From Nitrosopumilus sp. (GTDB lineage: Archaea > Thermoproteota > Nitrososphaeria > Nitrososphaerales > Nitrosopumilaceae): DNA of 64,000 nucleotides. The stretch lies in NCBI GenBank assembly GCA_965249555.1, contig OZ252243.1, positions 608,001 through 672,000 of the forward strand. Direction: 5' to 3'. The notes under the pieces are model-generated. The model saw only the letters and a list, made by a program, of their open reading frames with translations. It had not been told where the DNA came from and did no database searches. This document shows, one piece after another, positions 15,491 to 59,326 of this stretch (its first letter is position 1; every line of letters starts with the position of its first letter). Both the position numbers and the translations under genes were made by a program.

Positions 15491-15500
15491 CTCATATCAC

Positions 15501-17597: not shown

Positions 17598-17600
17598 AAT

Positions 17601-22940: not shown

Positions 22941-22942
22941 CT

Positions 22943-24971: not shown

Positions 24972-25946
24972 ATGAAATTTTTAGATGAAGATAGATTATT
25001 AGCAGAAGTAGAGTTAGAACCAACACAGGGTTCACGTTTCCAACCAACAGGATTCCCATCATTAGGATCTGCAGAATTCACAACTGTGGATAACGAAGGC
25101 AAAAATATTAACTCACTTTTAGTAGAATCTACACAATCAATGGCAAACAGATTAGAAGTTGTTTGTATGAATGATACAAAAACTGAACTTGTAGAAACAC
25201 TTTCTGATTTACCTGTAATAAAATTAAATGATTCAAATGGGAATTTTATAACAAATTCCATACTTGAAGCACATCGCATGAATTCATCATACCTACTAAA
25301 AGGAGAAAAAGGTAAATTGCTTCATAAGATATCAACCGATCTAGACATAACGGATAACAAAACACATGTTCCAAATATTTCAAAATTTGCAGAATTTGTT
25401 TTCAAATATGATACAAACTCCATTTTACACGGATTGTTTTTAGCTAACTCTGACATAGCAGGTGGTAGATACAAACTTACTCGTTCTCTTTCCTCATTTA
25501 TTGAAGCATCAAATATCAAAGTCAGTGTAAGTGGAGGAGTAAAGCTTGATCACATTGATCCAAAAGGTGGTGAAGGTGGAGCAGAAAAAGGATACGGGCA
25601 CATACCATACTCTAGAACAGAATACACAGCAGAATCAATAAAGGCATACTTTAGTATAGATTTGTCACTTATTCGTTCATATGGTCTATCTAATGTTGCA
25701 AATGAATTTCTATTGACATTTGCAATGTGGAAGATTCAATCTTTTCTTAAAACAGGACTACGACTTCGCACTGCATGTGATCTGAAAGTAAAAAATACCT
25801 TGGCTGTAACGTATCCAAACAACGTAACCATTCCAAGTCTAGATGAATTAGATACAGACTTGAGAAACAGTATAAAAAAATGTAAAAATGAAGGACTTTT
25901 TTGTACGGATCCGATAATCGTAGAACATATAGAGACAAAAAAGTAA
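24972..25946 (+). CDS. csb1: Type I-G Cas7 (Csb1)
   Basis: RFQPTGFP, LLVESTQSMANRLE, LEAHR and LRLRTACDL motifs. Confidence 0.93.
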   Translation: MKFLDEDRLLAEVELEPTQGSRFQPTGFPSLGSAEFTTVDNEGKNINSLLVESTQSMANRLEVVCMNDTKTELVETLSDLPVIKLNDSNGNFITNSILEAHRMNSSYLLKGEKGKLLHKISTDLDITDNKTHVPNISKFAEFVFKYDTNSILHGLFLANSDIAGGRYKLTRSLSSFIEASNIKVSVSGGVKLDHIDPKGGEGGAEKGYGHIPYSRTEYTAESIKAYFSIDLSLIRSYGLSNVANEFLLTFAMWKIQSFLKTGLRLRTACDLKVKNTLAVTYPNNVTIPSLDELDTDLRNSIKKCKNEGLFCTDPIIVEHIETKK

Positions 25947-25956
25947 TGGAACCAAA

Positions 25957-27429
25957 TTGTTTTGTATTAGAATCTGTTTTTTAAGTGGAGCTTATCATGC
26001 AACTCCATGGGGTAAACATGTCAACGAAGGAATTCCAGAATGGCCGCCATCTAGTTGGCGTCTTCTGCGTGCAATCATAGCGTCATGGAAAAACACATGT
26101 TCAGATATAACAGAGGATACAGTATGGCCAATTTTGCAAAAATTAATACAAGAACCCCCAGAGTATTATCTTCCAGATGCAAGTGTCTCTCACACACGTC
26201 ATTACATGCCAACATACAATAAACCAACATTAATCATGAATACATTTGTAGTTACGGGAGACAGACCGTTAGACATAATATGGAAATATGTGGAATTAGA
26301 AAAAAATGAAATTGATACTCTTGAAAAAATTTTAAAGAATATGCATTATTTTGGACGTGCAGAGTCATGGTGTACTGCAGGCATACAAGTAAAACCAAAT
26401 GAACCAAATTGTAGCAAGTTTGATGAACAGAGCATCCCAAAAGATGTAGAGTTGGTAAGAGTTTTGGTTCCAAACAAAGGTGTAAAATTTAAAGATTTTT
26501 CAGAACAATTCAAAGAATTAAAAAAAAATAATACAGACAACATAAGTGTAACTACTCAACAATTACAAGACAAGGGATTCATAGATCCGCCAGGTGCAAG
26601 ATGGATTCGCTATACCAGACCAGTGAATTGTTTTGAAGCAAAGACAAACGATACAGTCACAACTGAAACATTATCAAAAGTAACACTGATTCGTTATGCA
26701 GTAGTAAATACAGTTAGGCCAGAAATCAAAGACACATTACGCGTCGGAGATTTAGCAAGAACCGCTTGCATGTCCAGATACGGTAAAAAGAAAAATGGCG
26801 GTACATCAAAAATATTTTCAGGTAAAGATGAAAATAAAAAGCCGTTAGAAGGTCACAAACATGCTTTTTATCTACCAACATACGAGACACAGAATAAAGA
26901 GATAGATCATATTACCATTTTTGCAAAAGGTGGGTTTAATGCAGATGAGTTAGATGTATTATTCTCGTTGAAGAGATTATACCGATATGATTTGATGGAC
27001 ATACGCCTGATCTTTGAAGATTGTGGTACGGTTGATAATTTTACAGACATTCCCATATTTAAAAAAGAGCGTGTTTGGGTATCTACCACGCCGATGGTTC
27101 TTTCTAGACACATCAAATATCGCGGAACGGGATCAAACAAACATATGGTTGATGGTCCCAAAGAACAAATTTCTAATGAAATAAAACAAAGATACGATTC
27201 TTCATATAAAATTAAAGACATACAAATAGATGAAAAACCAACAAACATGCATAATACAAATATCAAACCATTTGATTTTTTCAGATGGCGAAATCATGGA
27301 AGAGTGGGAAGTGATAAGACATACAAAGTTAGATTAGAGTTTGAAGAACCTGTAAAAGGACCAATTACATTGGGATATGGATCACATTTTGGATTGGGCA
27401 TGTTTGTACCAGAGGATTATCATGAATAA
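25957..27429 (+). CDS. csb2: Type I-G Cas5/Cas6 fusion (Csb2)
   Basis: YHATPW, EWPPSSWRLLRA and GPITLGYGSHFGLGMF motifs. Confidence 0.93.
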   Translation: MFCIRICFLSGAYHATPWGKHVNEGIPEWPPSSWRLLRAIIASWKNTCSDITEDTVWPILQKLIQEPPEYYLPDASVSHTRHYMPTYNKPTLIMNTFVVTGDRPLDIIWKYVELEKNEIDTLEKILKNMHYFGRAESWCTAGIQVKPNEPNCSKFDEQSIPKDVELVRVLVPNKGVKFKDFSEQFKELKKNNTDNISVTTQQLQDKGFIDPPGARWIRYTRPVNCFEAKTNDTVTTETLSKVTLIRYAVVNTVRPEIKDTLRVGDLARTACMSRYGKKKNGGTSKIFSGKDENKKPLEGHKHAFYLPTYETQNKEIDHITIFAKGGFNADELDVLFSLKRLYRYDLMDIRLIFEDCGTVDNFTDIPIFKKERVWVSTTPMVLSRHIKYRGTGSNKHMVDGPKEQISNEIKQRYDSSYKIKDIQIDEKPTNMHNTNIKPFDFFRWRNHGRVGSDKTYKVRLEFEEPVKGPITLGYGSHFGLGMFVPEDYHE

Positions 27430-29782
27430 TTCACCAAACTACAAAAACTTTGAAGCTTTTTTTAAAAAAGCTACAGGATATGATCCCTATCCTTATCAGA
27501 TCAAACTTGCAGAATCCCAAATACCAGCAGTGATTAATGTACCTACAGGTGCAGGTAAGACAGAAGCTGCAATATTATCATTATGGATGTGGAGAAGGGA
27601 ATTAAAAGATGAAAATACACCAACCAGATTAATTTATTGTCTTCCCATGAGAGTGTTAGTGGAGCAGACCGTTCAGAGAGTGAGGAAATGGATCGAAAAT
27701 TTAGGATTAGATGATGTAATTGGAGTAATATCGCTTATTGGAGGTAGTAAGTATGAAGAATTCCAAAAACACCCCAGTAAAAAATACATCATCATAGGCA
27801 CACAAGATATGCTTATTTCAAGTGCACTTAATCGAGCATATGGAAAGAGTCCATATGCATGGCCCGCCTTTTTTGGTCTGTTTAATAATGACTGTATGTG
27901 GATCATGGATGAAATACAGATTATGGAAAATGGTCTCCCAACATCACTACAATTAGATGTATTTCGTAAGCAATTTAAAACATATGGATCATCAAAGACA
28001 GTTTGGATGTCTGCCACAATAAACAAAGATTGGCTGAAAACGATAAATTTTGACGGCATAAAGGATTCAGAGATTTGTAGTCTGGGTAAAGAAGATAAAA
28101 ATCATGAAGAGTTAAAAAAGCGCAACGAGGCAGCAAAAACACTTCACACCGCAGACATTGAATTTAAAAAATATGATAGCAAAGTTGTAAAATATCTGTA
28201 CAGTCTACACAAAAAAGGAACAACTACTGCCATCATGGTAAACACGGTTAAAAGAGCGCAAGAACTGTATGATCTATTTAAAAAAGAAGGATTAGAATGC
28301 AAATTAATTCATTCTAGGTTTAGAGAGAAAGACAGATCCGAATTAAATAAATGGATAAATAACTTGGGCAAAGAGGAAGTCATCATATCAACACAGGTAC
28401 TAGAAGCAGGAGTAGATATTTCTGTTCGTACAATGATCACAGAGATTGCACCATGGGCAAACATGGTACAACGTTTTGGAAGATGCAATAGAACTGGGGA
28501 ATTAGACCAAGCTGACATATACTGGATAGATCTACCTGACAAATTATTTGCACCATATGAAGAAAAAGATATGGAACTTGCAAAAGAAAAATTAAAAGAG
28601 CTGGACAACAAGTCAGTATCTCCAATTAATCTTCCAGACATCACAGAACAGAAAATTTTTGATGTCATACTACGAAAAAGAGATTTGGTGGATCTGTTTG
28701 ACAATGCATCTGACATATCTGGGAATTATGTAGATGCCTCAAGATTTGTACGTACAATTAAGCAGCAATTAAATGTCGAAGTATTTTGGAGAGATGATCT
28801 AACAAATAATGAAGAAGTGCAGAAACAAAACAGACATGAACGCAATGAGATATGCAGTGTTCCAATATATGATCTAAAAGAATTTCTAAAAAAAGCAAAA
28901 GTGGCATACTCGTGGAATAATGTAGAAGAGAAATGGGAGAGGATTAAAGCAGGTAAAATTTTTCCCGGACAAGTAGTTATGATAGATAGCAAAAAAGGAG
29001 GATATTCAAAAACATATGGATGGAAAAAAGAAATTGGAGAAAAAGTAGAGGCATGCCAAACATCAGATAAAAAAAATGATTCAAATGGATATGATGCACA
29101 ATCAGAATCAAAGAATCCAGTAACGCTAGAAGAACACACCAGTCATGTATCAGAAGAGATGAAAACCATACTAGCCAAATTGAAAATCATAGATAAGGAC
29201 ATCAAAGATATCATGACTACTGCTGCCAGATATCATGACATTGGTAAGATACACAATGTATTTCAAGACACATTAAAAAAAGGAATCATAGATAATGAGA
29301 TTGCCAAAACCAAAATATGGGCCAAGAGCCAAAAAATGAGTAAACATTCCATACCAGGTTTCAGACATGAGGTAGTCAGTGCACTAGTATATCTTAAACA
29401 ACCAGGCATAACACAAGATAAAAAATTGCAGAATCTTGTGGCATATCTTATAGTTTCACATCATGGAAAAGTTAGACTCTCATTAAGAGATGTAATTAAG
29501 AAAAAATATGAGGTAAAAGACCAGAAATATTTGTTAGGAATAAATGTAAATGGTGAGACCATACCAGAATTCTCTAGCGATGCAGTATCTGTCAAGGCAA
29601 CTGAAATAGACGTTTTATTAGCAAAAATTGGTCAAAACAATACATCAGAACCATCATGGGTAGAAAGAGCATTGTCTTTACGTGATGAGTATGGACCATT
29701 CCGTCTTGGATATCTTGAATCGTTACTCAGAGCAGCAGACACACTTGCCAGTCAAAAAGAGAGTGAAAGAAGATATGACTAG
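27422..29782 (+). CDS. cas3: Type I-G Cas3 (helicase with C-terminal HD nuclease)
   Basis: PTGAGKT, DEIQ, SAT and QRFGRCNR, followed by HDIGK...HHG at the C-terminus. Confidence 0.95.
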   Translation: MNNSPNYKNFEAFFKKATGYDPYPYQIKLAESQIPAVINVPTGAGKTEAAILSLWMWRRELKDENTPTRLIYCLPMRVLVEQTVQRVRKWIENLGLDDVIGVISLIGGSKYEEFQKHPSKKYIIIGTQDMLISSALNRAYGKSPYAWPAFFGLFNNDCMWIMDEIQIMENGLPTSLQLDVFRKQFKTYGSSKTVWMSATINKDWLKTINFDGIKDSEICSLGKEDKNHEELKKRNEAAKTLHTADIEFKKYDSKVVKYLYSLHKKGTTTAIMVNTVKRAQELYDLFKKEGLECKLIHSRFREKDRSELNKWINNLGKEEVIISTQVLEAGVDISVRTMITEIAPWANMVQRFGRCNRTGELDQADIYWIDLPDKLFAPYEEKDMELAKEKLKELDNKSVSPINLPDITEQKIFDVILRKRDLVDLFDNASDISGNYVDASRFVRTIKQQLNVEVFWRDDLTNNEEVQKQNRHERNEICSVPIYDLKEFLKKAKVAYSWNNVEEKWERIKAGKIFPGQVVMIDSKKGGYSKTYGWKKEIGEKVEACQTSDKKNDSNGYDAQSESKNPVTLEEHTSHVSEEMKTILAKLKIIDKDIKDIMTTAARYHDIGKIHNVFQDTLKKGIIDNEIAKTKIWAKSQKMSKHSIPGFRHEVVSALVYLKQPGITQDKKLQNLVAYLIVSHHGKVRLSLRDVIKKKYEVKDQKYLLGINVNGETIPEFSSDAVSVKATEIDVLLAKIGQNNTSEPSWVERALSLRDEYGPFRLGYLESLLRAADTLASQKESERRYD

Positions 29783-31865
29783 GATAACACTTGAGTGCAC
29801 ATCAACGTTACTATCAGACTATTTCAAAGCTCTAGGCATATTTCGAATCATGACAGAACAAAGCGATTCTAATATTACAGCATATTGGAGATATGATAAA
29901 TTTGTTTTGGAAACAAGCATGAGTGAAGAAGAAATTTTGGAGTTTATTTTAAAACAATACAAGCCGACGCCTATAATCACACCGTGGAGTTATAACAAAT
30001 ACATAAAAACAAAAGCATCAATCAAAACAAAATTAGATGCAAAAGATGATAGGTTTGAATCATATCGTACGGTAATACAAGAAATAGACAAAATTAATGA
30101 AATGTTCTGCAAGATTTTAAATCTAAATGAAATGAAAAAAGATACCATAACTAAAAAAACAAAGTTGTTATTTTTGCAACTATGTAGAAATAATTTTCCA
30201 GATGAAGCATTATCTTGGCTAGATGTAAATGTTGTGCTAGATGGAACAGATGCAAAATTTGCACCAATTACAGGATCGGGTGGAAATGACGGTAATTTTG
30301 ATATGGCTGAAAACTTTGTCAAGTATCTAATAGAGATGTTTGATCATAATGAAGAATCCAAAAACTTGCTGAAAGAATCACTCTTTGGAGGATCAAGTAA
30401 ATTGGAAGAAACAACTATGATAGGTCACAACCCAGATGGGAATAGTAGTGCAACATCAGGACAAGGTTTTGAAGGTAGATCACTGTCAAACAAGTGGGAT
30501 TACATACTGATGTTAGAAGGAATAATCTCGTTTGCAGGAAATCTGGCTAGACGTCAATCTCAAGGGAAAGGGAAAGCAGTATTTCCATTTACAACAGATG
30601 GCTCACATGTTGGCTATGCAACTGCATCAGATGATGAAAGGGATATCAGAGGTGAGATATGGTTGCCAATATGGAATAATCCTGCCACGTATAGAGAGAT
30701 CGCACATATGTTTAGTGAAGGACGGGTTCAGCTTAATGGAAAACAAGCTGGGACAGGAACAGAGTTTGCACGTGCCATAGTTAGTTTAGGTGTGGAAAGA
30801 GGGATATCGGCATTTCAAAGATTCAGTATTGTGCAAAGAAAAGGAGACGCATATTATTACATCAATGCAGGTAAAATACACACCGCAGATGAATCTGCAG
30901 TTTATTTATTAAGTGAGTTGGATAATTGGTATAATCCAATTTATCAAAAGAGCCAATCAAAAGAGAGTCCAGTGTCGATAAAACGGCATGTCAGAAATTT
31001 TGAAAACGAAGTGATGGAATTTTGCAAATATAGAAAAAAAGAACATCTCTTAAAAATAATGATTCAGGTTGGAAAGATAGAAAAACAGACATCATTGAGC
31101 AAAGAATTAAACCCATTACAGGAACTATCTGCGCAGTGGCTTGATGAGAGCTATGACAATTCAGTGGAATTTAGACTGGCAGCATCCATTGCATCAATAA
31201 AATCAGATAACAACGTAGGAGGAATACGAGAAAACTTGGAAGATATACAATATGGAGAAAGATGGGAACATAAAAAAGAATCAACAACATCTGTGTGGAA
31301 AGAAAATGATGATCTATTAAGGAATATGGGTCGTGTATTGCAAAGACGTGGAATAGATGGTAAAATAAAATCATTGGATGCCATACCAATTAAGGGGATC
31401 ATACCTGCAAGAATGGAGGATATTATAAAATTTCTCAGAGGAGAAGTAGATATGAGAAAAATAAATGACCTAGTTCTTCCGTTATCCATGATATCAATAA
31501 ATCAAAAGACAGAATATCCTTGGAAATCTATGAATAATGATGATATTTACGATATGCCAATACCAGAAGCATATATCATAATGAAGTTGATATGTCCTCC
31601 AGATAGAGATGAAAAAATCCCATACGACACATCAATACTAAATATGTTACATGCAGGAAGATTTGATGATGCTTATGCAAAAACAGCATACATACTACAT
31701 TCACACATGCGATCACCATTAAAATATTCAAAAATAAACGGCATGCCTAAAATATTGATTTCAGATATCATTAAAAAAAATATAATGGCGTCACTATTGT
31801 TTCCAATTTCAAAACATGATAGACAGAAAATGTTGCGTATGGTTACAGTTCAACAAAATTCATAG
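29775..31865 (+). CDS. csx17: Type I-G Cas8 (Csx17/Cas8g)
   Basis: YFKALG, YKPTPIITPW, GSGGNDG and GEIWLPIW motifs. Confidence 0.9.
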   Translation: MTRITLECTSTLLSDYFKALGIFRIMTEQSDSNITAYWRYDKFVLETSMSEEEILEFILKQYKPTPIITPWSYNKYIKTKASIKTKLDAKDDRFESYRTVIQEIDKINEMFCKILNLNEMKKDTITKKTKLLFLQLCRNNFPDEALSWLDVNVVLDGTDAKFAPITGSGGNDGNFDMAENFVKYLIEMFDHNEESKNLLKESLFGGSSKLEETTMIGHNPDGNSSATSGQGFEGRSLSNKWDYILMLEGIISFAGNLARRQSQGKGKAVFPFTTDGSHVGYATASDDERDIRGEIWLPIWNNPATYREIAHMFSEGRVQLNGKQAGTGTEFARAIVSLGVERGISAFQRFSIVQRKGDAYYYINAGKIHTADESAVYLLSELDNWYNPIYQKSQSKESPVSIKRHVRNFENEVMEFCKYRKKEHLLKIMIQVGKIEKQTSLSKELNPLQELSAQWLDESYDNSVEFRLAASIASIKSDNNVGGIRENLEDIQYGERWEHKKESTTSVWKENDDLLRNMGRVLQRRGIDGKIKSLDAIPIKGIIPARMEDIIKFLRGEVDMRKINDLVLPLSMISINQKTEYPWKSMNNDDIYDMPIPEAYIIMKLICPPDRDEKIPYDTSILNMLHAGRFDDAYAKTAYILHSHMRSPLKYSKINGMPKILISDIIKKNIMASLLFPISKHDRQKMLRMVTVQQNS

Positions 31866-31945
31866 ACAGAAATAGAGTTACAATATAAAGATTCAACATT
31901 TTTACAAGTTGATGAATTTTATAGATTTACAGACTTGTTAAGCAA

Positions 31946-34900
31946 TCTTCAATGAAGCCATAATTTTTTGTTATGGCAATCAGTGTAGATACTTTGTTCC
32001 ACATATCAACTCTACTAGGCTTCAAGAGAGTTGTAACTTTATCGTTACAGAAATTTGGTGGTCATGTGCCATATCAGAACGCCCTGATGTTATGCTTCAA
32101 TGGGGCTGTAACTTTATCGTTACAGAAATTTGAGAATAAATCCAGTAATAAATGGATTACCAGTTCCAGCGCTTCAATGGGGCTGTAACTTTATCGTTAC
32201 AGAAATTTTATGCGCTATGTGTTATGTTTGTCATACTCATGTAGCTTCAATGGGGCTGTAACTTTATCGTTACAGAAATTTCACAAATTGTAATACAATA
32301 AGGGTACTATAACGGTTGCTTCAATGGGGCTGTAACTTTATCGTTACAGAAATTTTATGCGCTATGTGTTATGTTTGTCATACTCATGTAGCTTCAATGG
32401 GGCTGTAACTTTATCGTTACAGAAATCACTCGGATGTTGTTTTCCCTGCACGTCTGATATACAGAGCTTCAATGGGGCTGTAACTTTACCGTTACAGAAA
32501 TTGGCTCCAGCTTTGGTAATCTCAAGAATGATCTCGCCACGCTTCAATGGGGCTGTAACTTTATCGTTACAGAAATCACTCGGATGTTGTTTTCCCTGCA
32601 CGTCTGATATACAGAGCTTCAATGGGGCTGTAACTTTACCGTTACAGAAATTGGCTCCAGCTTTGGTAATCTCAAGAATGATCTCGCCACGCTTCAATGG
32701 GGCTGTAACTTTATCGTTACAGAAATGGCTTAATCAAAGATGTTATCTCAATGTCCGTATATTATCAACTTCAATGGGGCTGTAACTTTATCGTTACAGA
32801 AATATAAAGAGGAAGCTGAGGGTTTCACAATCGATTTTCTAGCTTCAATGGGGCTGTAACTTTATCGTTACAGAAATTTTGTGAGGTTTGAAGTTTGAAG
32901 TGGACAGTTTCCCAAGCTTCAATGGGGCTGTAACTTTATCGTTACAGAAATTCTGTTATCTTTGATTTTTAGTTTGATTTTATCTTCTTCAGCTTCAATG
33001 GGGCTGTAACTTTATCGTTACAGAAATCTAAAAATGTTTTGACTGCTGTCGGCGTGTAAGCCGGGCTTCAATGGGGCTGTAACTTTATCGTTACAGAAAT
33101 TTCCATCAGCTCCAGTTTCATCTTTACCAAATGCTTTGCTTCAATGGGGCTGTAACTTTATCGTTACAGAAATTTCTCCAGCCGGATATTGATAACCGTG
33201 AGCCTTCATGCTTCAATGGGGCTGTAACTTTATCGTTACAGAAATTTCGAAAAGCCAATTAGTAAACTTGGTACGACTCACCTGCTTCAATGGGGCTGTA
33301 ACTTTATCGTTACAGAAATTGTAAGTTACAGGATAACGCAATAAATCTATGCTCAGCTTCAATGGGGCTGTAACTTTATCGTTACAGAAATACTTTATCA
33401 CGATTACGGTTTAGATAGTCAAGGACAAGCTTCAATGGGGCTGTAACTTTATCGTTACAGAAATAAATGAATCAGCGAATAGTTCGACATCAAATTTCTT
33501 GCTTCAATGGGGCTGTAACTTTATCGTTACAGAAATCTGATGATAACATCTTTGCTGAATTTCATGTTCATGCTGCTTCAATGGGGCTGTAACTTTATCG
33601 TTACAGAAATCATGAGTGATTTGTTGTCCTCGAGTTGGTCCTCCATGTGCTTCAATGGGGCTGTAACTTTATCGTTACAGAAATGATACAACTTGAAAAT
33701 ATTGCAAAAGCAGAAGCACGCTTCAATGGGGCTGTAACTTTATCGTTACAGAAATTGGAAAATCAAGCTTCAAAATTAATGGCTACAACATCGCTTCAAT
33801 GGGGCTGTAACTTTATCGTTACAGAAATTTCCCTATGGACCTTCCTTTGCAGGTCCTTGTATTTCTCAGCTTCAATGGGGCTGTAACTTTATCGTTACAG
33901 AAATGCGGCAGCCAATCCCGACGGCTTGGCTTCCATCATAGACGCTTCAATGGGGCTGTAACTTTATCGTTACAGAAATGTAGTAATTGCATTCATCTGC
34001 ATTTGACTTGCACCACCGCTTCAATGGGGCTGTAACTTTATCGTTACAGAAATTTCGGCTTTGAAAATTGCTAATGCTTTAGATTTTTTGCTTCAATGGG
34101 GCTGTAACTTTATCGTTACAGAAATCTTGATGTCTCAAACAGCAAGAGTTCAAACTAGATTAGCTTCAATGGGGCTGTAACTTTATCGTTACAGAAATAT
34201 AGAACGGTTATCAGGTCAAAGAGCGTTAAAAGTAGCTTCAATGGGGCTGTAACTTTATCGTTACAGAAATTTGGATAGCGATTGGATAGCTATGACAAAG
34301 CAACTGGAAGCTTCAATGGGGCTGTAACTTTATCGTTACAGAAATCTGCATCAGTAAGAAATAGTAGATTGTCTACAGCCGTTGCTTCAATGGGGCTGTA
34401 ACTTTATCGTTACAGAAATGATGGATCAGGCTATACCAGGGGTATTGGGTCAGGGATGCTTCAATGGGGCTGTAACTTTATCGTTACAGAAATTTAGTGT
34501 TACTGAAAATTCTAGGTTAGGATGGTCCAAAGCTTCAATGGGGCTGTAACTTTATCGTTACAGAAATTTTGAAAAAGAAACTTTGAAAGAAGACAAAGAG
34601 AGAGCGCTTCAATGGGGCTGTAACTTTATCGTTACAGAAATCTTAGGTTGTAGAACTCAAAGAACAGCTGACATTATCGCTTCAATGGGGCTGTAACTTT
34701 ATCGTTACAGAAATGTCAGAATTAGTTTGAGTAAAAACACTACCTTTTCTCGCTTCAATGGGGCTGTAACTTTATCGTTACAGAAATTTAGCATACAAGA
34801 GATAGCCTCCGATACCAACCGCTCCTGGCTTCAATGGGGCTGTAACTTTATCGTTACAGAAATTTCTCAAAATGAAAAAAATTGTTAACAATGTCCAAGC

Positions 34901-35538
34901 TTCAATGGGGCTGTAACTTTATCGTTACAGAAATTTTGAGCCTTTCAATTACACTAGTTAAAATTTTAGATGCTTCAATGGGGCTGTAACTTTATCGTTA
35001 CAGAAATCACCAAGTCGTGCAATACCTCCACCAGGTCCTCCTGGCTTCAATGGGGCTGTAACTTTATCGTTACAGAAATTTGATTGTTTCGACAAGATTC
35101 CAACTGACACCTAGATCCTGGAGGCTTCAATGGGGCTGTAACTTTATCGTTACAGAAATTAGGATATCAGCGCCACGACTTAGGCCCGCTGCTAAATTTG
35201 TGCTTCAATGGGGCTGTAACTTTATCGTTACAGAAATATGGTATACAAGCAACATATCCGTACGAAGTGTGTATTGTCTACGCTTCAATGGGGCTGTAAC
35301 TTTATCGTTACAGAAATATCGAATTTAGAAAACTTGTCGCAATTAGAACATTTATGCTTCAATGGGGCTGTAACTTTATCGTTACAGAAATTTTTATAGA
35401 GCTATAAAGCCTAATATAAACCCTAAATGCTTCAATGGGGCTGTAACTTTATCGTTACAGAAATTTCTGTTTGTTCTTTTTTAGCCTTGTCAAGACTACT
35501 TTGCTTCAATGGGGCTGTAACTTTATCGTTACAGAAAT
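31946..35538 (-). CRISPR. Type I-G array: 49 repeats (two degenerate at the left, trailer end) and 48 spacers of 35-44 nt
   Basis: 36-bp repeat ATTTCTGTAACGATAAAGTTACAGCCCCATTGAAGC (minus strand) with CTGTAAC/GTTACAG stem; orientation from the ATTGAAGC 3' end, degenerate left repeats and AT-rich leader next to cas2. Confidence 0.98.
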
Positions 35539-35690
35539 GGGGTCATTTTCTCTAAAACCGTTATCATGTTTTTGTTTCTAGTTGTTTTTCAATTGTTATC
35601 TGACGATTCAAGCAAATCATAGACATTGCTGTGGTATGATATTTTTTTCATATATATTATATCTGCGAGAGTATTATCATACTTACCTTG
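35539..35690 (-). promoter_or_regulatory. CRISPR leader
   Basis: AT-rich non-coding stretch between cas2 and the first perfect repeat, with a TATA-like element. Confidence 0.7.
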
Positions 35691-35691
35691 A

Positions 35692-35801
35692 CTTGTAACC
35701 CATCGCATTTTCTTTGCCCTATATCACTTGCGCAAAGCTCTTGATAGGGCTTCTTGTCAGGCATCTTGTAACCCATCGCATTTTCTTTGCCCTATATCAC
35801 T
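35692..35801. repeat. 37-bp direct duplication flanking a 36-nt insert
   Basis: CTTGTAACCCATCGCATTTTCTTTGCCCTATATCACT at 35692-35728 and 35765-35801. Confidence 0.95.
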
Positions 35802-36079
35802 ACGGATCTCTCCCTTTCCGTATCCATTTGTGCCCCTATTACTGATATTCTTTCTTTACTTTTATTTAAGGAGCCAAGATTAATTATCAAAATTTTATCT
35901 TCAACCATATTCATTATATCCTCTAACTCTTCTTTCATAATTATTATTTCCTTGTAGTTAAGATCACACATAAACACAGAATATTGTACAGGTTCCCCAT
36001 ACCCCTTCATCTTTTTATGTATCTGTATCAATCGTTGCGGATCATGTATATCGTAACATACAAAGTATCTATTGCGCAA
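35792..36079 (-). CDS. cas2: Cas2
   Basis: YFVCYDIHDP.RL...GYGEPVQYSVF; TTG start assumed. Confidence 0.93.
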   Translation of the reverse strand: MRNRYFVCYDIHDPQRLIQIHKKMKGYGEPVQYSVFMCDLNYKEIIIMKEELEDIMNMVEDKILIINLGSLNKSKERISVIGAQMDTERERSVVI

Positions 36080-36083
36080 ACCT

Positions 36084-37769
36084 TCATCTTGTCCTAAATG
36101 CAGGATATGTTGGAATCTCTCCAAGAATATGTCTGGCAAGTAATCTTGTTTGAGTTTCCATTATGCGTTTATAGCTGGCAGCATAACCCAAAAGTGGATG
36201 AATAACAACAGAATCCATACGTCTCTCATATGCAGTTATCACTGTAGAACGCCCTCTATTGGTAAGGTTTGTTCCAAAGTCGGTCTTTATCAAATCTGAT
36301 TCATTGATTTCACCGTTATTGATAAGCGTAATACATGTAGAATCTGCTACAATTGGTCTGAATTCCTCGATCATATCAAGTGCAAGTGCGGGTTTCCCAT
36401 ATTTTGGCATATGAAGAAATCCCAGATAGGGATCAAGACCTACTCTACTAACTGTAATCATTGCATTCCTTGTCAACATTGCATATAGAAATGACATAAT
36501 TGCATTAACTGGATCCTTTGGAGGTCTTCTGTTTCTTCCATTAAAATCAAAAGCCGTTGATTCAGATTTTATCATGCCATTAAATTCTGAAAAATATATG
36601 CGTGCAGCCATTCCCTCTATTCCAAGAAGAGTATCATATTGTTTTACAGTACATGCACGTTGTGCAAGTATGTTCATCTTGTGTATCTTATCTATAGGGG
36701 GAGATTTGTGGTTTCTACGTAGCATTGTCATGCAATTTTTTATTTTTCCAAACACCATCTGACGAGCTATCCCAATGGATGCATTTTTAACATCATATTT
36801 TTTATGCTGTTTAATTCGCAGTTCTATATTTTTATGTGAAAGTCCTGTAGTAATACCCGTAAACCATCCTCCATATGTCATGTAACAGATAGGAATATTT
36901 CGCTTGCTTAACTCCCTTATTGCTTGTGTTGTGATCTGGATATTTCCAAATAGTGTAATTTCTGAAATGTCTATCAATCTAATCTTCTTTATTATTGTAT
37001 CTTTTAATTTTACATGAATGCAATCATTTGATTTTGTAATATGTGCTCCCTGTTCCTGTATGTATACTGGTATGGTGTCATTTCTTATTGGATACATTCT
37101 GCGTATCTGGTCCTTGTTTATTTGATGAGTCTCATCTGATAACAAATTGACTTCATCAGGTAGACATATTCCCACAAGGGAACATCTTGGACATTTCGGA
37201 CTGTCAACCAACGGAGCAGGTATTGTATATGACTTTGCCATTTCTTTCATCTCTTTGATCATCTGTAATGTTTTTTTTACTGTTTGATCATCTAGATTAA
37301 TTTCTATTCTTTGCTTTGATGCAATATAATAAACAAAACCCTTTGTACATGTGTATCCATTTGCACGTAGTAAAAGTCCTTGAGCACATACTTGTATGAT
37401 GTGATCATCATATGTTCTGTTAGGAGTATTGGGAGTGCTGCCACGTTTGTATTCTATTGGTGTTGCAACGTTTCCATCTAATTCAAGTAGATCTGTTTTA
37501 GATATCAATCCAAGCTCTGTATCAGACAAAGTAACTGATCTGGCATGAATCTTTTCTACTGTGATATTATCTTTATCGGTCTTTTGTTCAAGCATTTTTC
37601 CTCCTGACGGTTTGTCTACATTTCTATGCTGATATTTGCCGTCTATCACATCTTTGTTGGATTCAAATTCCCCTTGAACCCATTCCATATATGCAAGTCG
37701 TTTACAATATACGAATTGTGTTAGCATTCTTACTGGTATAAGATTTGAATTAACACTTGATGTACTCAT
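36084..37769 (-). CDS. cas1: Cas4-Cas1 fusion
   Basis: YCKR, PIEYKRG and CPRCSLVGIC (Cas4); GIEG.AAR.YF, RNRRPPKDPVNA and DMIEEFRP (Cas1). Confidence 0.95.
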   Translation of the reverse strand: MSTSSVNSNLIPVRMLTQFVYCKRLAYMEWVQGEFESNKDVIDGKYQHRNVDKPSGGKMLEQKTDKDNITVEKIHARSVTLSDTELGLISKTDLLELDGNVATPIEYKRGSTPNTPNRTYDDHIIQVCAQGLLLRANGYTCTKGFVYYIASKQRIEINLDDQTVKKTLQMIKEMKEMAKSYTIPAPLVDSPKCPRCSLVGICLPDEVNLLSDETHQINKDQIRRMYPIRNDTIPVYIQEQGAHITKSNDCIHVKLKDTIIKKIRLIDISEITLFGNIQITTQAIRELSKRNIPICYMTYGGWFTGITTGLSHKNIELRIKQHKKYDVKNASIGIARQMVFGKIKNCMTMLRRNHKSPPIDKIHKMNILAQRACTVKQYDTLLGIEGMAARIYFSEFNGMIKSESTAFDFNGRNRRPPKDPVNAIMSFLYAMLTRNAMITVSRVGLDPYLGFLHMPKYGKPALALDMIEEFRPIVADSTCITLINNGEINESDLIKTDFGTNLTNRGRSTVITAYERRMDSVVIHPLLGYAASYKRIMETQTRLLARHILGEIPTYPAFRTR

Positions 37770-38112: not shown

Positions 38113-38637
38113 TTATACAAACTTTCTAGCCTTCATTCTCTTGATTTTTTCTTGCAACAAAATACATCCTTGGATGAGAGTTTCAGGTCTAGGCGGACAG
38201 CCAGGAACATAGACATCGACTGGAATCACTCCGTCAATTCCCGGAAGTACATTGTATGAATCAAAATACAACCCCCCAGTAATTGCACAAGCTCCCATAG
38301 CAATTACATACTTTGGTTCTGGCATTTGATCATAAACTAGTCTGAGACGTGGTGCCATTTTTCTTGTAATAGTTCCTTGAACAACAATTAGATCACATTG
38401 TCTAAGTGATCCAAATGCCTCAATGATACCAAATCTTTCAACATCATATCTAGGACTTGATGCTGCACCAAATTCAACACTGCAGCAAGCCGTTTCAATG
38501 TGGACAGGCCAGAGTGACCAAATTCTACCCCAATTGATGGCATAGCCCAATGGTTTGCCGATTGCCCGCTCTAAAATGTCCCCTAGCTTTCCTACAAAGA
38601 CATTTGCATTTTCTGGCGTTACTAAATCATTAAGCAA
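38113..38637 (-). CDS. nuoB: NADH-quinone oxidoreductase subunit B
   Basis: TACCSVE, MGACAITGG and VPGCPPRPE motifs. Confidence 0.96.
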   Translation of the reverse strand: MLNDLVTPENANVFVGKLGDILERAIGKPLGYAINWGRIWSLWPVHIETACCSVEFGAASSPRYDVERFGIIEAFGSLRQCDLIVVQGTITRKMAPRLRLVYDQMPEPKYVIAMGACAITGGLYFDSYNVLPGIDGVIPVDVYVPGCPPRPETLIQGCILLQEKIKRMKARKFV

Positions 38638-38676
38638 TCTTATCCCCTATCTCATAAATGCAATTTATATAAAAAA

Positions 38677-39051
38677 CTACCATATTCTTCGCCTCCCAGA
38701 CTGATACAATGCAAATGCCATTGCGCCAAACATTATAGCTAAAAATCCCATCATTGGCAAAGTTGCACTCTTTGGAAGTTCCAAAAGGGCACTTCCCCAG
38801 GCATACAGGAAGATTGCCATGACATCAAAGACTACAAACATCAGAATGTAGGGATAATACTGCATCATAAAGTGAGTCCGGCCTTCGCCTGACGGGACTT
38901 GACCGCATTCCATTGGTAAAAATTTCACAGGATTGTTTATTTTTCGAGGAGAAATCATCCTAGAAATAACTAAAGCCGGAGCCATAGCTGCTACGGCAAA
39001 TCCAAACATCAATACAACAATACTGTAATTGCCCGCTAATTCTCCGACCAA
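38677..39051 (-). CDS. nuoA: NADH-quinone oxidoreductase subunit A
   Basis: PMECGQ and YYPYILMFVVFDV motifs. Confidence 0.95.
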   Translation of the reverse strand: MVGELAGNYSIVVLMFGFAVAAMAPALVISRMISPRKINNPVKFLPMECGQVPSGEGRTHFMMQYYPYILMFVVFDVMAIFLYAWGSALLELPKSATLPMMGFLAIMFGAMAFALYQSGRRRIW

Positions 39052-55404: not shown

Positions 55405-56292
55405 GTGATATGTAGTATATTCATGGTAAGTATAGTAAAAGAGGGAGGATTTTACTATATGAAACATCACACTAGAGACAAAGAAAAGAGAAGATATCTA
55501 GGCAAAACCATACCAAAGGATATCGAGCAACAAAAAAAGACGTTTCTCAAGGAATTTTACTGTAAAGTGTGGGATGGTAAAACACGAAAAATTATCGCAA
55601 GTTACAAAAAAGACACAGTGGGAATTCCACGATCAATAAAACTAAAAAATTTTGAGAGTTTTGCAATATCATTTACATACAACACGCAAAGAATAGAGGG
55701 TTCAAGTCTCACTCGTGCAGACACAATAAACTTGCTAGTACATGGTGTCACTTCTGCAAAAAAATCAAAGATAGATGCCATTGAGACTCTGAAACACTAT
55801 GAGCTATTTATCAGACTAGTAACATCAAAGAAGCTTGAAAGAATCAGAAAAAAAGATGTCCTAAAATGGCACAGAGAAATATTTGATCAAACAAAAATTG
55901 GAGAAGCTGGGGATATCAGACATCACAGGGTAGGAGTAATAACTAGTAACGAGGTAGAATTTACGCCAGTTCCACAGATACCAAAAAAACTAAAAGAATT
56001 TTTTGATTGGCTAAACAGATATGATAAAAAGGCAAATCCTGTAGAATTTGCAGCCCTCACTCATTACAAGCTTGTCTCAATTCACCCCTTTGCTGATGGA
56101 AATGGCAGGATCTCAAGACTAGTCATGAATTATGTTTTATTCAAATATGATTGTCCACTTGTGCAGATTGAAAGCAGGGACAAGAGGTCATATTTCAAGT
56201 CATTAGAAAAATCCCAGACAAACAATAATGAGATGTATTTTCTAAAGTGGTTTATGAAATATTATATCAAATCCAACAAGAGATATCTATAA
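55405..56292 (+). CDS. Fic-domain protein
   Basis: HPFADGNGRISR catalytic motif; YNTQRIEGS inhibitory helix. Confidence 0.93.
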   Translation: MICSIFMVSIVKEGGFYYMKHHTRDKEKRRYLGKTIPKDIEQQKKTFLKEFYCKVWDGKTRKIIASYKKDTVGIPRSIKLKNFESFAISFTYNTQRIEGSSLTRADTINLLVHGVTSAKKSKIDAIETLKHYELFIRLVTSKKLERIRKKDVLKWHREIFDQTKIGEAGDIRHHRVGVITSNEVEFTPVPQIPKKLKEFFDWLNRYDKKANPVEFAALTHYKLVSIHPFADGNGRISRLVMNYVLFKYDCPLVQIESRDKRSYFKSLEKSQTNNNEMYFLKWFMKYYIKSNKRYL

Positions 56293-56506
56293 AAAAACTA
56301 ATTTACTATCTACGCCAGTTGTCTGCATCTGAGATACTTTCAAATTGATTCTTTTAAAAACCTGACAAACAAAACCCTCAGAACAACCAAAACAATTGAG
56401 TGCCAGCCACAGAAAAGATTTAGAATATTATCTAGAAAATTTTCCCAATTTTTTTCTTAGTTTATTCAACGTTGCTTATCATATGTAGTAATTATTGAAA
56501 TGTACA

Positions 56507-56645
56507 CTCTCATACGAAACCGTCTCCAACCCTACTGCGACTAAGTGTGTTTTGCTGAATCACGACATCTGGGATATGCATCTTATACTTTCGTTGTGTC
56601 AGTTCATGATTTTGTATACGATACACTTTCAGAGTTTGTTAGTAT
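56507..56645 (-). mobile_element. Solo copy of the IS110 3' end
   Basis: Similar to 39103-39251, e.g. GCATCTTATACTTTCGTTGTGTCAGTTCATGATTTTGT. Confidence 0.85.
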
Positions 56646-56918
56646 GATGCATTTAGATAAAAAAAGTCCGTATCCACATCAGCCCCTGATTACCCATCAC
56701 GGATGGTCCAAGGGATTCAAATACGGCAATATACCATAGTATAAGATAACATAAGATAGTATCGGTTTGCGATATTTATTCTCTAAAGGCAATTATTCAT
56801 GTTTGTGCCTAAATTATATCTTCAATAACATGTGATTTTGTCAAACCTATAAAATTAACGATCATGTGGAATCTTGTGTGAAAGAAAAATGAAAAGAATA
56901 GTAAAAATGGCATGCTAC

Positions 56919-57025
56919 AACTATGAGCAGGCAACAACACGGAAGAAAGATGCCTAAATCAAGTTCAAGTTCTAGTTACCGTTCATCTAGTAACTATGAC
57001 CAGGCAACAACACGGAAGAAAGGTG
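56919..57025. repeat. 34-bp imperfect direct duplication with 73-bp period
   Basis: AACTATGA(G/C)CAGGCAACAACACGGAAGAAAG(A/G)TG at 56919 and 56992. Confidence 0.88.
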
Positions 57026-57135
57026 AGATAATCAGGTGCACAAAATGCCGGTTCTGTGAAGTTATCGTGACCTGAAATATGGATCTTCTAAGGATTCTGC
57101 TAACTAATTTTTATAACTGGTTATTCAATCAAAAA

Positions 57136-57243
57136 CATGAATCTCTGCTTACAGAGCCGCCCCATTGAAGAATTAACTATGTGTGTTACAAAATACAAAA
57201 ATTAGAAATTTCTGAAAGTTTCTACTTTCAGCCCCATTACCGA
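57136..57243 (+). CRISPR. Mini-array (one spacer) related to the type I-G repeat
   Basis: ...GCCCCATTGAAGA, 36-nt spacer, then ATTTCTGAAAGTTTCTACTTTCAGCCCCATT with two compensatory stem pairs. Confidence 0.8.
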
Positions 57244-57247
57244 ACAT

Positions 57248-57340
57248 ACATACTTAATGAATCTATCATAACAAGGATTGAAACTTTGTAGTGAGTTGTA
57301 GAGAATCCAATTTGGAAATCCACTAAAACAAGGATATAAC
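57248..57340 (+). CRISPR. Second mini-array, from a different (...ACAAGGATTGAAAC) repeat family
   Basis: ATCTATCATAACAAGGATTGAAAC, ~20-nt spacer, ATCCACTAAAACAAGGATATAAC. Confidence 0.7.
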
Positions 57341-57424
57341 ATCTCACTACAAACAAATTATTTTCTTGTGCCTGTCAACAAAATCAAGAAATATTTAATA
57401 AAGTAGTTCAATGTTAATTTGAGT

Positions 57425-57538
57425 ATGACAAAAGAAAACACACCAGATTGGAATGATGAAGACCTTGCCAAATGCACAAAATATGATGATGATGTTAAAG
57501 CAGGTACAATGACCTATAGAAGCATAGAGATAAATTAA
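57425..57538 (+). CDS. Small acidic protein (37 aa), putative antitoxin
   Basis: MTKENTPDWNDEDLAKCTKYDDDVKAGTMTYRSIEIN; TATA ~25 nt upstream; precedes the RelE-like ORF. Confidence 0.55.
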   Translation: MTKENTPDWNDEDLAKCTKYDDDVKAGTMTYRSIEIN

Positions 57539-57558
57539 ATCAATTTCTCTCTTTTTTT

Positions 57559-57825
57559 ATGAAAATTTCTAAAATTAAATACAGTAAACAGTTTGATAAA
57601 TTTTTAGAGAATCTGAATGATAAAACTCGTGCAGAACAAATTACTACTGCACTTGAAAACTATGCAAAAGATCCAAATGAATTACCTAGACCAAAAGATT
57701 GCAAACATTATGCAAATAGAGAAAAAGTTGCAATACCTGATGCAAGTGTTGTCGTTTTTTATGATAATTTTGGGAGTTATTGGATTATGATTGATGGTTC
57801 TGAATTTACTCAACGAGTAACTTAG
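57559..57825 (+). CDS. RelE/ParE-like protein
   Basis: IKYSKQFDKFLENL...EQI..AL....DP size and pattern; divergent C-terminal half. Confidence 0.55.
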   Translation: MKISKIKYSKQFDKFLENLNDKTRAEQITTALENYAKDPNELPRPKDCKHYANREKVAIPDASVVVFYDNFGSYWIMIDGSEFTQRVT

Positions 57826-57838
57826 TTACTTGTATTGA

Positions 57839-58009
57839 TTAATCCTTAGTTACAACAATTCCTTTACCACGAATGACAAACTTTATCCTTTCAGGATCTT
57901 TGAGAAGTTCTATTATTGGTTTTGGTACTCTGCATATTTTACTGTTAGCTCCATCAAATGTAAGTTTTACAGAAAACTCTCTCTGATCTTTTTTCCATCT
58001 TGGCAACAT
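57839..58009 (-). CDS. Small AbrB-like DNA-binding protein divergent from the transposase
   Basis: MLPRWKKDQREFSVKL...CRVPKPIIELL...IKFVI; ATACGTACG twice in the shared intergenic region. Confidence 0.7.
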   Translation of the reverse strand: MLPRWKKDQREFSVKLTFDGANSKICRVPKPIIELLKDPERIKFVIRGKGIVVTKD

Positions 58010-58090
58010 ACAAAATTATCTTTACATGTATAAAAATCATACGTACGCTAATAAGTTATGTATAAATATACGTACGTGTAATATAATTAC

Positions 58091-59215
58091 ATGAACCCAA
58101 GAACTCAAAGAGCCCAACAGATGATGAAAAATCCAGACTGTGCAGTACAATTCACTCCTGACAAATTCAGTGTAAGATCACAAAGCATTCCACAAATTCA
58201 TTATATCATATCAAAGACTGACAACGGATTAATCTGTGACTGTCCAGATCACACCAAAAGAAAATCAGACTGCAAACATATCAAGATTGTATTGGAGCTA
58301 ATTAAGAAAAATCAAGGTGATGTCCAAGAGTTTAGAATGATGGATAGATCACTACTCAAATTATGCAAATACTGTGATTCAGGCAGATTGATCAAAAAAG
58401 GAATCAAAAAAAACAAGAAAGGAAATACCCAGCAATACAAATGCCAAGATTGTAAAAAGAGATTCACCTTGAATCTTGGCTTTGAGAAGATGAGATATGA
58501 TTCAACTCTAATCACTAGAGCCTTGCAGTTGTACTTTGCAGGAATGAGTGTAAGAGATATTGCAGATGCTTTTGAGCAGGAGGACATCAAAGTATCTTAT
58601 AGGGCAGTCTACGGATGAGTTGAAAAATACTCCAAGATGACCAGTAATTATCTCAAGGGTATAGTACCAAGAGTATCTGAAACTTGGAGAACAGATGAAA
58701 TCTTTATGAAGATAAAAGGCAATATGAAACTACAGTATTCAATGCTTGACCACTCCACTAGATTTATGATCACTCAATATGTGGTAAACACAAAAGGCAC
58801 TGAAAACGTCACACCGATGTTTAGGGAAGCAATGATGATTGCAGACAAAATCCCAACTACTCTGATTTCTGATGGTGCAGCCAACTTTCACTAGGCATGG
58901 AAGGATAATTACAAGGCACGAAATTTCTTGTGGAAAGATACTAACCATATCAGACACATACACCTCAAGGGTGACAAAAATAATAACAGAATGGAAAGAT
59001 TGAATGGTACTATAAGAGACAGAGAAGTAGCATACAGGGGGATAAAGAAGATGAACAGTCCATTATTTGCAGGATTCCAAACATTCTATAATTTCTCAAA
59101 AAAGCATGGTGGCATAGGCAAGAAGACTTCAGCAGAATTAGCTGGTATTCTAGTAGATGGAAATAACAAGTGGAAAACTCTGATCCAAAACGCCTCACTT
59201 AGTCAATACCAATAA
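58091..59215 (+). pseudogene. IS6-family DDE transposase with SWIM and Zn-ribbon domains; two in-frame stops
   Basis: CDCPDH..CKH, WRTDE, LISDG and NNNRMERLNG motifs; three same-frame ORFs separated by TGA 58616 and TAG 58892. Confidence 0.9.
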
Positions 59216-59326
59216 TCATCATTTTAAGAATTTTAGAACTTGTAAATTTTATGTAGATTTTTCAATCCTTAGAAGATCGTGTTTTGTGTCTGGGTCACGA
59301 TAACTTCACAGAACCACAAATTCAAT

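Follow-up and report, generated by a model that had tools for sequence, protein, structure and literature searches.

Guides that turn the Cascade effector of type I CRISPR-Cas systems into a repressor are known from inside cas loci, as in CreTA, CreR and cargo mini-arrays, and from phages and plasmids, where they serve as anti-defence RNAs. CreTA modules are described from haloarchaeal type I-B and bacterial type I-F systems (PMC8501985, PMC9458426, PMC10097628). In H. hubeiense as in H. hispanica, the guide RNA CreA base-pairs to its target through positions 1-5 and 7-11; positions 6 and 12 are dispensable, mutations at either are harmless, and the protospacer adjacent motif (PAM) is TTC, as the text of PMC8501985 has it. 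Shmakov et al. 2023 described regulatory mini-arrays (crlRNAs) with toxin-antitoxin (TA) genes as cargo in CRISPR-cas loci (PMC10120712); in the accessible part of that paper, type I-G occurs only in a table of repeat-like sequence frequencies, and the text there holds no I-G cargo case. CreR RNAs are the subject of bioRxiv 10.1101/2023.03.10.532045, and the Cracr and Racr RNA anti-CRISPRs of phages and plasmids that of bioRxiv 10.1101/2024.10.29.618823 and PMC10651486. Here we analyse a stretch of 64,000 nucleotides from Nitrosopumilus sp. (assembly GCA_965249555.1, contig OZ252243.1, positions 608,001 to 672,000), hereafter the window, in which positions 57097-57356 probably hold two stacked regulatory mini-arrays of the CreA or crlRNA kind. 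They resemble CRISPR RNA (crRNA) genes and are cargo of a transposon, an insertion sequence (IS) of the IS6 family.

The locus resembles CreTA in having two divergent, degenerate repeats that retain the 8-nt handle, limited seed pairing (positions 1-5 and 7-11, with 6 and 12 free), a PAM-flanked site near a toxin gene and a Cascade that is expected to bind without cleaving. It differs in its cargo, which is a protein of apparent RelE/ParE fold with a protein antitoxin, whereas CreT is a small RNA that sequesters a rare tRNA or other essential RNA. CreTA lies in or beside the cas operon that it guards, whereas this stack is carried by an IS6-family transposon, at a distance of about 20 kb from the type I-G and about 1 Mb from the type I-B system. 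In addition, its targets come immediately after the guide genes and are not demonstrably part of the toxin promoter, and two units for two subtypes are stacked. With the mini-arrays of Shmakov et al. it shares two repeat-like sequences 15-60 bp apart (here 36 nt and about 20-23 nt, conserved in three loci), a spacer partly complementary to a nearby site, and variable downstream protein TA genes behind a mini-array of conserved position. Those mini-arrays were looked for and found within or next to cas loci and, as far as that text goes, mainly in type I-D where they have cargo; the present stack is transposon-borne, would serve two subtypes and also occurs in a genome where the type I effector genes searched for were not found. 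Like Cracr and Racr RNAs, the units are crRNA-like, sit on a mobile element, have short spacers and address several CRISPR variants. However, those RNAs redirect effectors to cas or creT promoters or sequester them, and may be a solitary repeat that lacks a guide, whereas here both units have guides, their co-evolving cis targets lie upstream of the element's own cargo, and the carrier is an insertion sequence in an archaeon. Our literature searches turned up no account of crRNA-like guides carried by an insertion sequence, of a stack for I-G and I-B, or of such elements in Thaumarchaeota; the supplements of Shmakov et al. may list I-G or transposon-borne cases.

Anatomy of the stacked units

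Both units lie on the plus strand, in series. Unit A (57136-57245) copies the type I-G repeat that is resident in the host genome. Its first pseudo-repeat, psiR1-A (57136-57171), agrees with the resident repeat at 25 of 36 positions, contains a predicted hairpin CTCTG/CAGAG (57143-57156) and has the 3' end CCCCATTGAAGA. It is followed by the 36-nt guide psiS-A (57172-57207), the first 16 nt of which pair with 57243-57258, and by the second pseudo-repeat psiR2-A (57208-57245, 27/36 identical). The predicted stem of psiR2-A, CTGAAAGT/ACTTTCAG, is unlike the stem of the real repeat in sequence and retains its pairing in the predicted folds.

Unit B (57248-57340) copies a different repeat, the 37-nt type I-B repeat of congeners, which in their real long arrays ends in ...AAATCCATCATAACAAGGATTGAAAC. 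The degenerate psiR1-B (57248-57284) matches it at 30/37 positions and ends in ...ATCTATCATAACAAGGATTGAAAC. The guide psiS-B (57285-57307) is short, about 20-23 nt, and pairs with its first 15 nt to 57339-57353. The more degenerate psiR2-B (57304-57340) matches at 24/37 positions and ends in ...ATCCACTAAAACAAGGATATAAC (...AACAAGGATATAAC). Matches to the 30-nt I-B repeat of the host itself, which belongs to a Cst2/Cas5t-type system, are fewer (25/30 for psiR1-B, 18/30 for psiR2-B). A repeat search recorded the two pseudo-repeats of unit B as a direct repeat (57260-57278 and 57317-57335, 79% identity). Handles of 8 nt are present in both units, ATTGAAGA in unit A and ATTGAAAC in unit B.

The original prediction, made from the letters of this DNA, had likened the sequences of unit B to the 37-nt archaeal I-B/III repeats, and had proposed that a matching I-B system be sought in this or related genomes. 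Repeat ends at 57284 and 57340 and a spacer start at 57285 were recovered where it had placed them. The 37-nt repeat proved to be that of real congener arrays, and in one congener (G165; G-numbers are our genome labels) it adjoins Csh2, Cas5h, Cas3, Cas1 and Cas4 genes, that is, an I-B system of the Csh2/Cas5h type.

Upstream of both units, the TATA-like box TTTTTATAA (57108-57116, plus strand) is a candidate promoter of the mini-array transcript. In the three loci known to carry the stack (see below), TTTTTATA stands 44-46 nt ahead of CCCCATTGAAG, as counted on the sequences.

Guide-target pairing and flanking motifs

Each guide has a complementary minus-strand site directly behind its own second repeat. 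Target A with its PAM TTC occupies 57243-57261 of the minus strand (target from 57258 down to 57243, PAM as the complement of 57259-57261) and extends over the last letters of psiR2-A and the first of psiR1-B. Target B with its PAM TTG occupies 57339-57356, likewise on the minus strand (target from 57353 down to 57339, PAM as the complement of 57354-57356). Guide A pairs at positions 1-5, 7-11 and 13-16, with mismatches solely at 6 and 12. Guide B pairs at positions 1-11 and 13-15 and mismatches at 12; this is the arrangement that the original prediction had described, and our own scan agreed with it, as did the repeat search (inverted match 57285-57299/57339-57353, 15 nt, 93%). Pairing stops after 15-16 nt in both units.

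For a chance control, pairing was scored over 14 guide positions, leaving out 6 and 12, within ±250 nt of the site. Unit A scored 14 and unit B 13. Among 3695 random window positions, two reached a score of at least 13 and none a score of 14. By contrast, the 15-nt repeat tail alone is not significant, with 4 window matches at up to three mismatches versus 5.2 expected. The pairing of guide and target is significant.

The TTC beside target A is also the flank of a true protospacer. A resident I-G spacer (window 32502-32540 and 32652-32690) matches a conserved, coding-looking region at 33-34 of 39 positions in nine congener genomes, and the protospacer is flanked by TTC in all nine loci (L043-L046, L050, L051 and L053-L055), which are orthologues of one conserved gene region and hence count as one independent data point. 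Compared with a phage collection, the I-G array gave one chance-level match (E 0.09), and within their own genome the array spacers had nothing but short chance matches. A genome-wide scan with the 11-nt guide seeds, allowing up to one mismatch, gave no match in either cas locus.

Counterparts in other Nitrosopumilus genomes

BLAST comparison of the stack with 151 genomes from the genus and 401 from the order revealed true counterparts in two other Nitrosopumilus genomes, G084 and G166. Both of these sit within a like IS, close to one of its ends, and are followed by a small two-gene operon, the IS backbone open reading frame (ORF) and the transposase, in this order. Since the genomic neighbourhoods differ, the three genomes acquired the element by separate insertions. 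Unit A matched six of the 401 genomes, three of which (G174, G104 and G468) were discarded as AT-rich chance matches without repeats. Exact-pattern scans returned nothing from metagenome contigs (two patterns) or viral contigs, and a single record (L119) from genome contigs, which we excluded from the locus count.

The guide and target of unit A read ATTAACTATGTGTGTT and ATTAAGTATGTATGTT in this genome, ATTAATTTTGTTTTTT and ATTAACTTTGTATTTT in G084, and ATTAATTTGGTGTGTC and ATTAACTTGGTTTGTC in G166, each with the PAM TTC. At positions 8, 9, 14 and 16, guide and target are altered together across the loci; positions 6 and 12 are mismatched in all three, with varying bases. Between this genome and G084, the guides of unit B disagree at 10 of 15 positions, yet each of them pairs at 1-11 and 13-15. 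The G084 unit B has its own downstream target with the PAM TTA, and its second repeat is replaced by a plain hairpin. In 5/5 intact units pairing begins at guide position 1 and mismatches occur only at 6 and 12. All 68 counted positions (14 in each of three A units, 13 in each of two B units) form Watson-Crick pairs, with no wobble. Guide-target complementarity persists across about 25% sequence divergence through paired changes. Among the I-G-type pseudo-repeats of the three loci, 5/6 keep a predicted hairpin of 5-8 bp directly before CCCC(A/G)TT, and the stem sequences of these hairpins differ.

We also searched the two congeners for effector genes. In G166, csb2 (type I-G) is present and neither I-B Cas7 was found; its unit A is intact, and its unit B is interrupted and targetless (best score 8/14). 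In G084, csb2, cst2 and csh2 were not found, no Cas3 was above the cut-off and there was one Cas1-family match, and both units are intact. The G166 locus hints that unit B decays where its effector is missing, in a comparison of three genomes. The intact stack of G084, without the effectors searched for, indicates that loss of Cascade is probably not lethal to a carrier.

Two candidate minus-strand features within the stack were tried and rejected, a 46-aa ORF starting at target B (57342-57202) as a toxin and minus-strand promoters at target A. Neither has a conserved minus-strand TATA in G084 or any other support.

Toxin-antitoxin cargo

Behind the stack, two small ORFs follow on the plus strand. 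The second (57559-57825, 88 aa), which the original prediction had taken for a RelE-like toxin, gave a structural model with a predicted local distance difference test (pLDDT) score of 88.2. All matches listed by Foldseek in the PDB were toxin chains of the RelE, ParE, YafQ, YoeB or HigB type or homologous H. pylori proteins, with a best E of 1.7e-3, template modelling (TM) scores of 0.55-0.74 and none at E ≤ 0.001. The Pfam family ParE_toxin (PF05016) matched below threshold (E 0.049, 14.6 bits, cut-off 23). By its modelled fold, the protein is a putative toxin of the RelE/ParE superfamily, as had been supposed. The protein family is small, comprising 16 representative clusters at E ≤ 0.001 and five proteins in a word-indexed search.

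The first ORF (57425-57535, 37 aa) is a candidate antitoxin, with an AT-rich, TATA-like stretch about 30 nt upstream. An AT-rich stretch also directly abuts the PAM of target B. The ORF is conserved in two further copies. A Pfam search assigned it to no family and revealed no recognisable DNA-binding domain, so that the usual autorepression by the antitoxin is unlikely. Modelled together, the two proteins gave an interaction prediction score from aligned errors (ipSAE) of 0.65, versus 0.04 for the best of three controls; three runs agreed in at least 93% of contacts, and the pLDDT of the partner was at least 81. In calibration, 58 of the 80 solved complexes passed, as did 2 of the 110 mismatched pairs. 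The present pair is a textbook RelBE-like one, and its pass may be due to likeness to solved complexes. The modelled pair has the beta-alpha-alpha-beta-beta-beta toxin fold of RelBE and ParDE systems and a small upstream partner that is modelled to wrap the toxin. It differs from them in the lack of a recognisable DNA-binding domain in the 37-aa partner and in a toxin sequence under the Pfam threshold.

The TA cargo is different in each of the three loci. A 91-aa protein of the G166 cargo models as RelE/HigB-like (pLDDT 78, best E 6.9e-3). Profile alignment with hhalign showed no relation of the G084 and G166 cargo to the 88-aa family (probability about 1%), and they fall in no Pfam family.

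A second, 88% identical copy of the antitoxin-like ORF, the upstream 48 nt included, occurs in the host genome at C1:1990347-1990540 (L015). A truncated start of the toxin ORF follows it, an oppositely oriented IS end directly precedes it, and it has no mini-arrays.

The IS6-family carrier

The original prediction had placed these features on an IS6 element, and the carrier bore this out. The element spans window positions 57050-59315 (2266 bp) and is bounded by perfect 23-nt terminal inverted repeats (57050-57072, the reverse complement of 59293-59315). Its left end covers 57050-57096 on the plus strand and its right end 59264-59315 on the minus strand. Copies of the IS ends occur elsewhere in the genome, and copies of the left end were found in congeners, too. 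The IS6/IS240-type transposase (58091-59215, plus strand) is broken into three frames, 58091-58618, 58637-58894 and 58928-59215. These pieces match DDE_Tnp_IS240 (PF13610) at 1.8e-7 and the intact G084 counterpart, a protein of 390 aa, matches it at 1e-12; a match of a G165 relative to the NCBIfam model transpos_IS6 was under the cut-off. For an 8-bp target duplication at the IS flanks, there was no match in the window, and 7/8 positions matched in G084.

An ORF of 56 aa on the minus strand (57839-58009) faces the transposase gene and is part of the IS backbone. It has close relatives at the same place in G166 and in a sibling IS of this genome, and no Pfam family. This sibling, an IS6-family copy at C1:229263-232643, carries a methyltransferase-like ORF and a second large ORF, which by eye look like a restriction-modification pair and which stand where the mini-arrays and the TA pair are found in the present element. 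The transposase of the sibling is one uninterrupted frame of 365 aa. Cargo-carrying IS elements seem to be a feature of the host genome. According to the text of a 2019 survey, passenger-carrying composite transposons were among the classes undetected in archaea (PMC6563490). The stack shows cargo-carrying IS elements in Thaumarchaeota.

Several further observations concern the element and its surroundings. Subterminal IS ends (57085-57096, 59264-59275 and genome 229290-229310) read ...CTTCTAAGGATTGAAA(G/A), which resembles the 3' end of the resident I-B repeat, ...ATAGGATTGAAAG, the 8-nt handle included. At the left end of the window's IS, this I-B-repeat-like stretch is altered to ...AAGGATTCTG. 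The likeness may be chance or may reflect a link between the IS family and the CRISPR repeat. To the left of the element, window positions 56506-56646 form a stretch of about 140 nt with more than 30 genomic copies at 77-87% identity, similar to a miniature inverted-repeat transposable element. Just left of the IS end, a 50-aa ORF contains a 49-nt direct repeat (56919-57040, 84% identity, 73-nt spacing), and a Fic/DOC-domain protein is encoded further left (55405-56292).

CRISPR-Cas systems of the host genome

The window comes from a complete genome of 2.23 Mb with 34% G+C, which contains two CRISPR arrays. The I-G array (window 32019-35538, 48 repeats) stands beside cas7g, csb2, cas3g, cas8g/csx17 and cas4-cas1g in a locus that extends over 24963-37769 (cas genes at 24963-31865, cas4-cas1g at 36084-37769). 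The I-B array, about 1 Mb from the I-G array, has 61 repeats of 30 nt and stands beside an I-B system of the Cst2/Cas5t/Cas8b1 type. A search of the host genome for Cas10 found none, so an RNA-targeting reading of the 6-nt periodicity of the mismatches would lack its effector here. Csh2 was not found either, in a search with G165 as positive control. The claim that the element carries guides for two Cascades thus holds in so far as the units are of the I-G and I-B type; the Csh2-type I-B system to which unit B corresponds was not found in the host.

The I-G island stands between nuoA/nuoB (38113-39051, minus strand) and nuoC-nuoN (14006-23539, minus strand), and it appears to be inserted within the NADH-quinone oxidoreductase gene cluster (window 12318-39051). 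Three spacers of its array are present twice each, about 150 nt apart (window about 32200-32700; genome 640207/640354, 640427/640577 and 640502/640652), a duplication of a repeat-spacer block. Distant from the cas locus, coding-looking sequence flanks an array of two perfect I-G repeats with a single 37-nt spacer (C1:1884690-1884798, L026). The I-B cas locus (C1:1613000-1632000, L002) is broken up by IS elements: an IS1595-type transposase separates cas4 from cas1b, and one of the IS66 type separates cas1b from cas6. Solitary I-B-like repeats lie at C1:534974-535003 (L025) and C1:1334754 (minus strand), with 6 and 5 substitutions relative to the 30-nt repeat. The former stands 30 nt ahead of a small ORF pair that resembles another TA module. 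A 12-nt inverted match near it was rejected as a target, as guide position 1 is mismatched and the flank, read by eye, is ACG and no TTN.

Ectopic copies of the 37-nt repeat are common among congeners. A three-repeat mini-array of G036 (L023, 5496-5661) has a first repeat that is degenerate like psiR1-B (90% over 40 nt). G167 has a two-repeat mini-array and a solitary 37-nt repeat (L154 and L156), and single 37-nt repeats occur in G023, G072 and G071 (L147, L099 and L100).

Discussion

From the anatomy of the stack, the co-variation of guides and targets, the PAM, the toxin fold and the structure of the IS, all obtained by computation, we infer a course that leads from transcription through processing and loading to repression by a Cascade that binds and does not cleave. 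Close behind the left IS end, a promoter at the TATA-like box would transcribe both units rightwards. The reading of one transcript with two guides draws on the pairing of the guides with the non-template strand and on the TATA-like box that is conserved in all three loci. Host enzymes would then excise the two guides, Csb2 acting on the I-G unit and Cas6 on the I-B unit, and each guide would bear its 8-nt 5' handle (ATTGAAGA or ATTGAAAC). Each would load into the matching Cascade, which would go to the PAM-flanked site behind the guide's own gene. With pairing of only 15-16 nt, Cascade would bind and Cas3 would stay unlicensed. The strand bound by the guides would be the plus strand, which is the non-template one when transcription runs rightwards, and pairing with the non-template strand is the effective orientation for a Cascade roadblock. 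Bound Cascade would in this way gate read-through into the next unit, into the TA pair (57425-57825) and possibly into the transposase, and two units in series would give silencing in hosts that have either Cascade.

While we regard stacked regulatory mini-arrays as the probable identity of 57097-57356, a further proposal is more tentative and rather less likely than not. The IS might carry a portable, host-adaptive CRISPR switch, in which two serial guides couple its cargo, the TA pair and perhaps the transposase, to any type I Cascade that a new host offers. The cargo would be silent under a working Cascade and freed upon loss of the effector or its block by an anti-CRISPR, and the stack would be an exchangeable regulatory cassette. 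The cargo that differs in each host suggests such a general-purpose cassette.

Several points weigh against these proposals. Some concern the TA pair. As the original prediction had it, both targets lie upstream of the toxin operon, but target A lies between the units and neither target overlaps the nearest TATA-like box. That box is at about 57391-57402, the PAM of target B is 35 nt upstream of it, and a Cascade at target B would extend away from it; in G084 this gap measures about 22 nt. Should the TA pair be transcribed from a promoter of its own, an upstream roadblock would not repress it, and this promoter may be real, since the partial copy at L015 keeps about 48 nt before the ATG without a mini-array. 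Moreover, a complete toxin and antitoxin pair weakens a simple addiction logic of the CreTA kind. Other points concern the effectors. In G084, csb2, cst2 and csh2 were not found and no Cas3 was above the cut-off, though its units, cargo and transposase are intact. With no Csh2-type I-B system found in the host of the window, unit B may be unused here; the handle of the resident I-B repeat ends in G and that of the unit B pseudo-repeat in C. No I-B PAM could be derived. Resident I-B spacers compared with the 151 genus genomes gave only arrays, repeat-like matches and weak matches of 70-78% with mixed flanks; in the same genomes, all matches of the 37-nt array of G165 were to arrays or solitary repeats. 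Finally, the predicted fold shows that a guide and its target would pair at the RNA level, too, if a read-through transcript were left unprocessed, and the sample is small, three loci in all from a single genus.

Alternatively, the units could be an RNA anti-CRISPR or a decoy that hijacks Cas proteins, similar to Racr and Cracr RNAs. Their transcripts would then soak up or redirect the I-G and I-B Cascades, and the cis sites would be secondary, for example a sink. We consider this unlikely. The units are indeed part of a mobile element and address two subtypes in multiplex, like the Cracr RNAs of phages and plasmids in the text of 10.1101/2024.10.29.618823, the spacer of unit B is short, and the stack is present in G084, where cognate effectors were not found. 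However, Cracr RNAs as described in that text aim at host cas or creT promoters, whereas sites with both seed and PAM occur here only in cis and the seed scan hit neither cas locus. The co-variation of cis guide-target pairs in three species argues that DNA binding at these sites is under selection, and a single IS copy per genome would titrate very little Cascade.

It is quite unlikely that the stack serves to control the transposon itself. Parked Cascade would in that case limit read-through from the left end into the transposase 0.75 kb downstream, transposition would rise when CRISPR effectors are absent or inhibited, and the TA pair would be an interchangeable stabiliser. The stack and the IS end are conserved jointly, with a different TA cargo in each of the three loci, the transposase lies downstream on the same strand, and the mini-arrays keep a fixed distance from the left end. 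But the sibling IS6 copy with restriction-modification cargo and an intact transposase frame has no mini-array, which argues that the stack is not a general part of the IS, and a conserved ORF on the opposite strand separates cargo and transposase.

RNA hairpins that act without Cas proteins, as terminators, insulators or processing signals, with the repeat likeness as a captured CRISPR relic, are very unlikely. The minimum-free-energy fold of 57140-57360 does pair each guide with its downstream match, an RNA stem would co-vary too, and in such a stem 3/6 of the unit A mismatches would be G-U wobbles. Yet a stem gives no reason why all mismatches of the 5/5 intact units should fall on guide positions 6 and 12, numbered from where the 8-nt handle stops. 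It also leaves unexplained the start of pairing exactly at position 1 and a TTC flank that is kept in 3/3 loci and equals the PAM of a true I-G protospacer. The 68/68 Watson-Crick pairs with zero wobble and the handle and hairpin needed for processing, which the pseudo-repeats retain, also speak against it.

Least probable of all, and hardly credible, is the view that the IS once captured small CRISPR arrays whose remnants are now functionless and decaying, as the degenerate repeats, the visibly decayed unit B of G166 and the broken transposase of the window are set against complementarity maintained over about 25% divergence by paired changes, hairpins retained with different stem sequences and a limited extent of pairing in unit B that was retained despite a rewritten guide.

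Compared with Cascade-repressor guides from cas loci, phages and plasmids, regulatory mini-arrays of the proposed kind differ in four respects: the guides are on an insertion sequence, their targets are in cis, two subtypes are addressed at once, and the protein TA cargo is exchangeable. The three natural variants amount to a mutational series, in which seed changes are compensated, positions 6 and 12 vary freely and one unit has decayed in a genome missing its effector. To our knowledge, they also give the first lead on the seed and PAM rules (TTC) of an I-G Cascade in Nitrosopumilus. If the proposal is true, a transposon borrows the CRISPR effectors of its host to control its own genes, which would link IS biology, TA stabilisation and CRISPR status. 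A transposon of ammonia-oxidising archaea would then use Cascades in trans as repressors, with an either/or logic over two subtypes.

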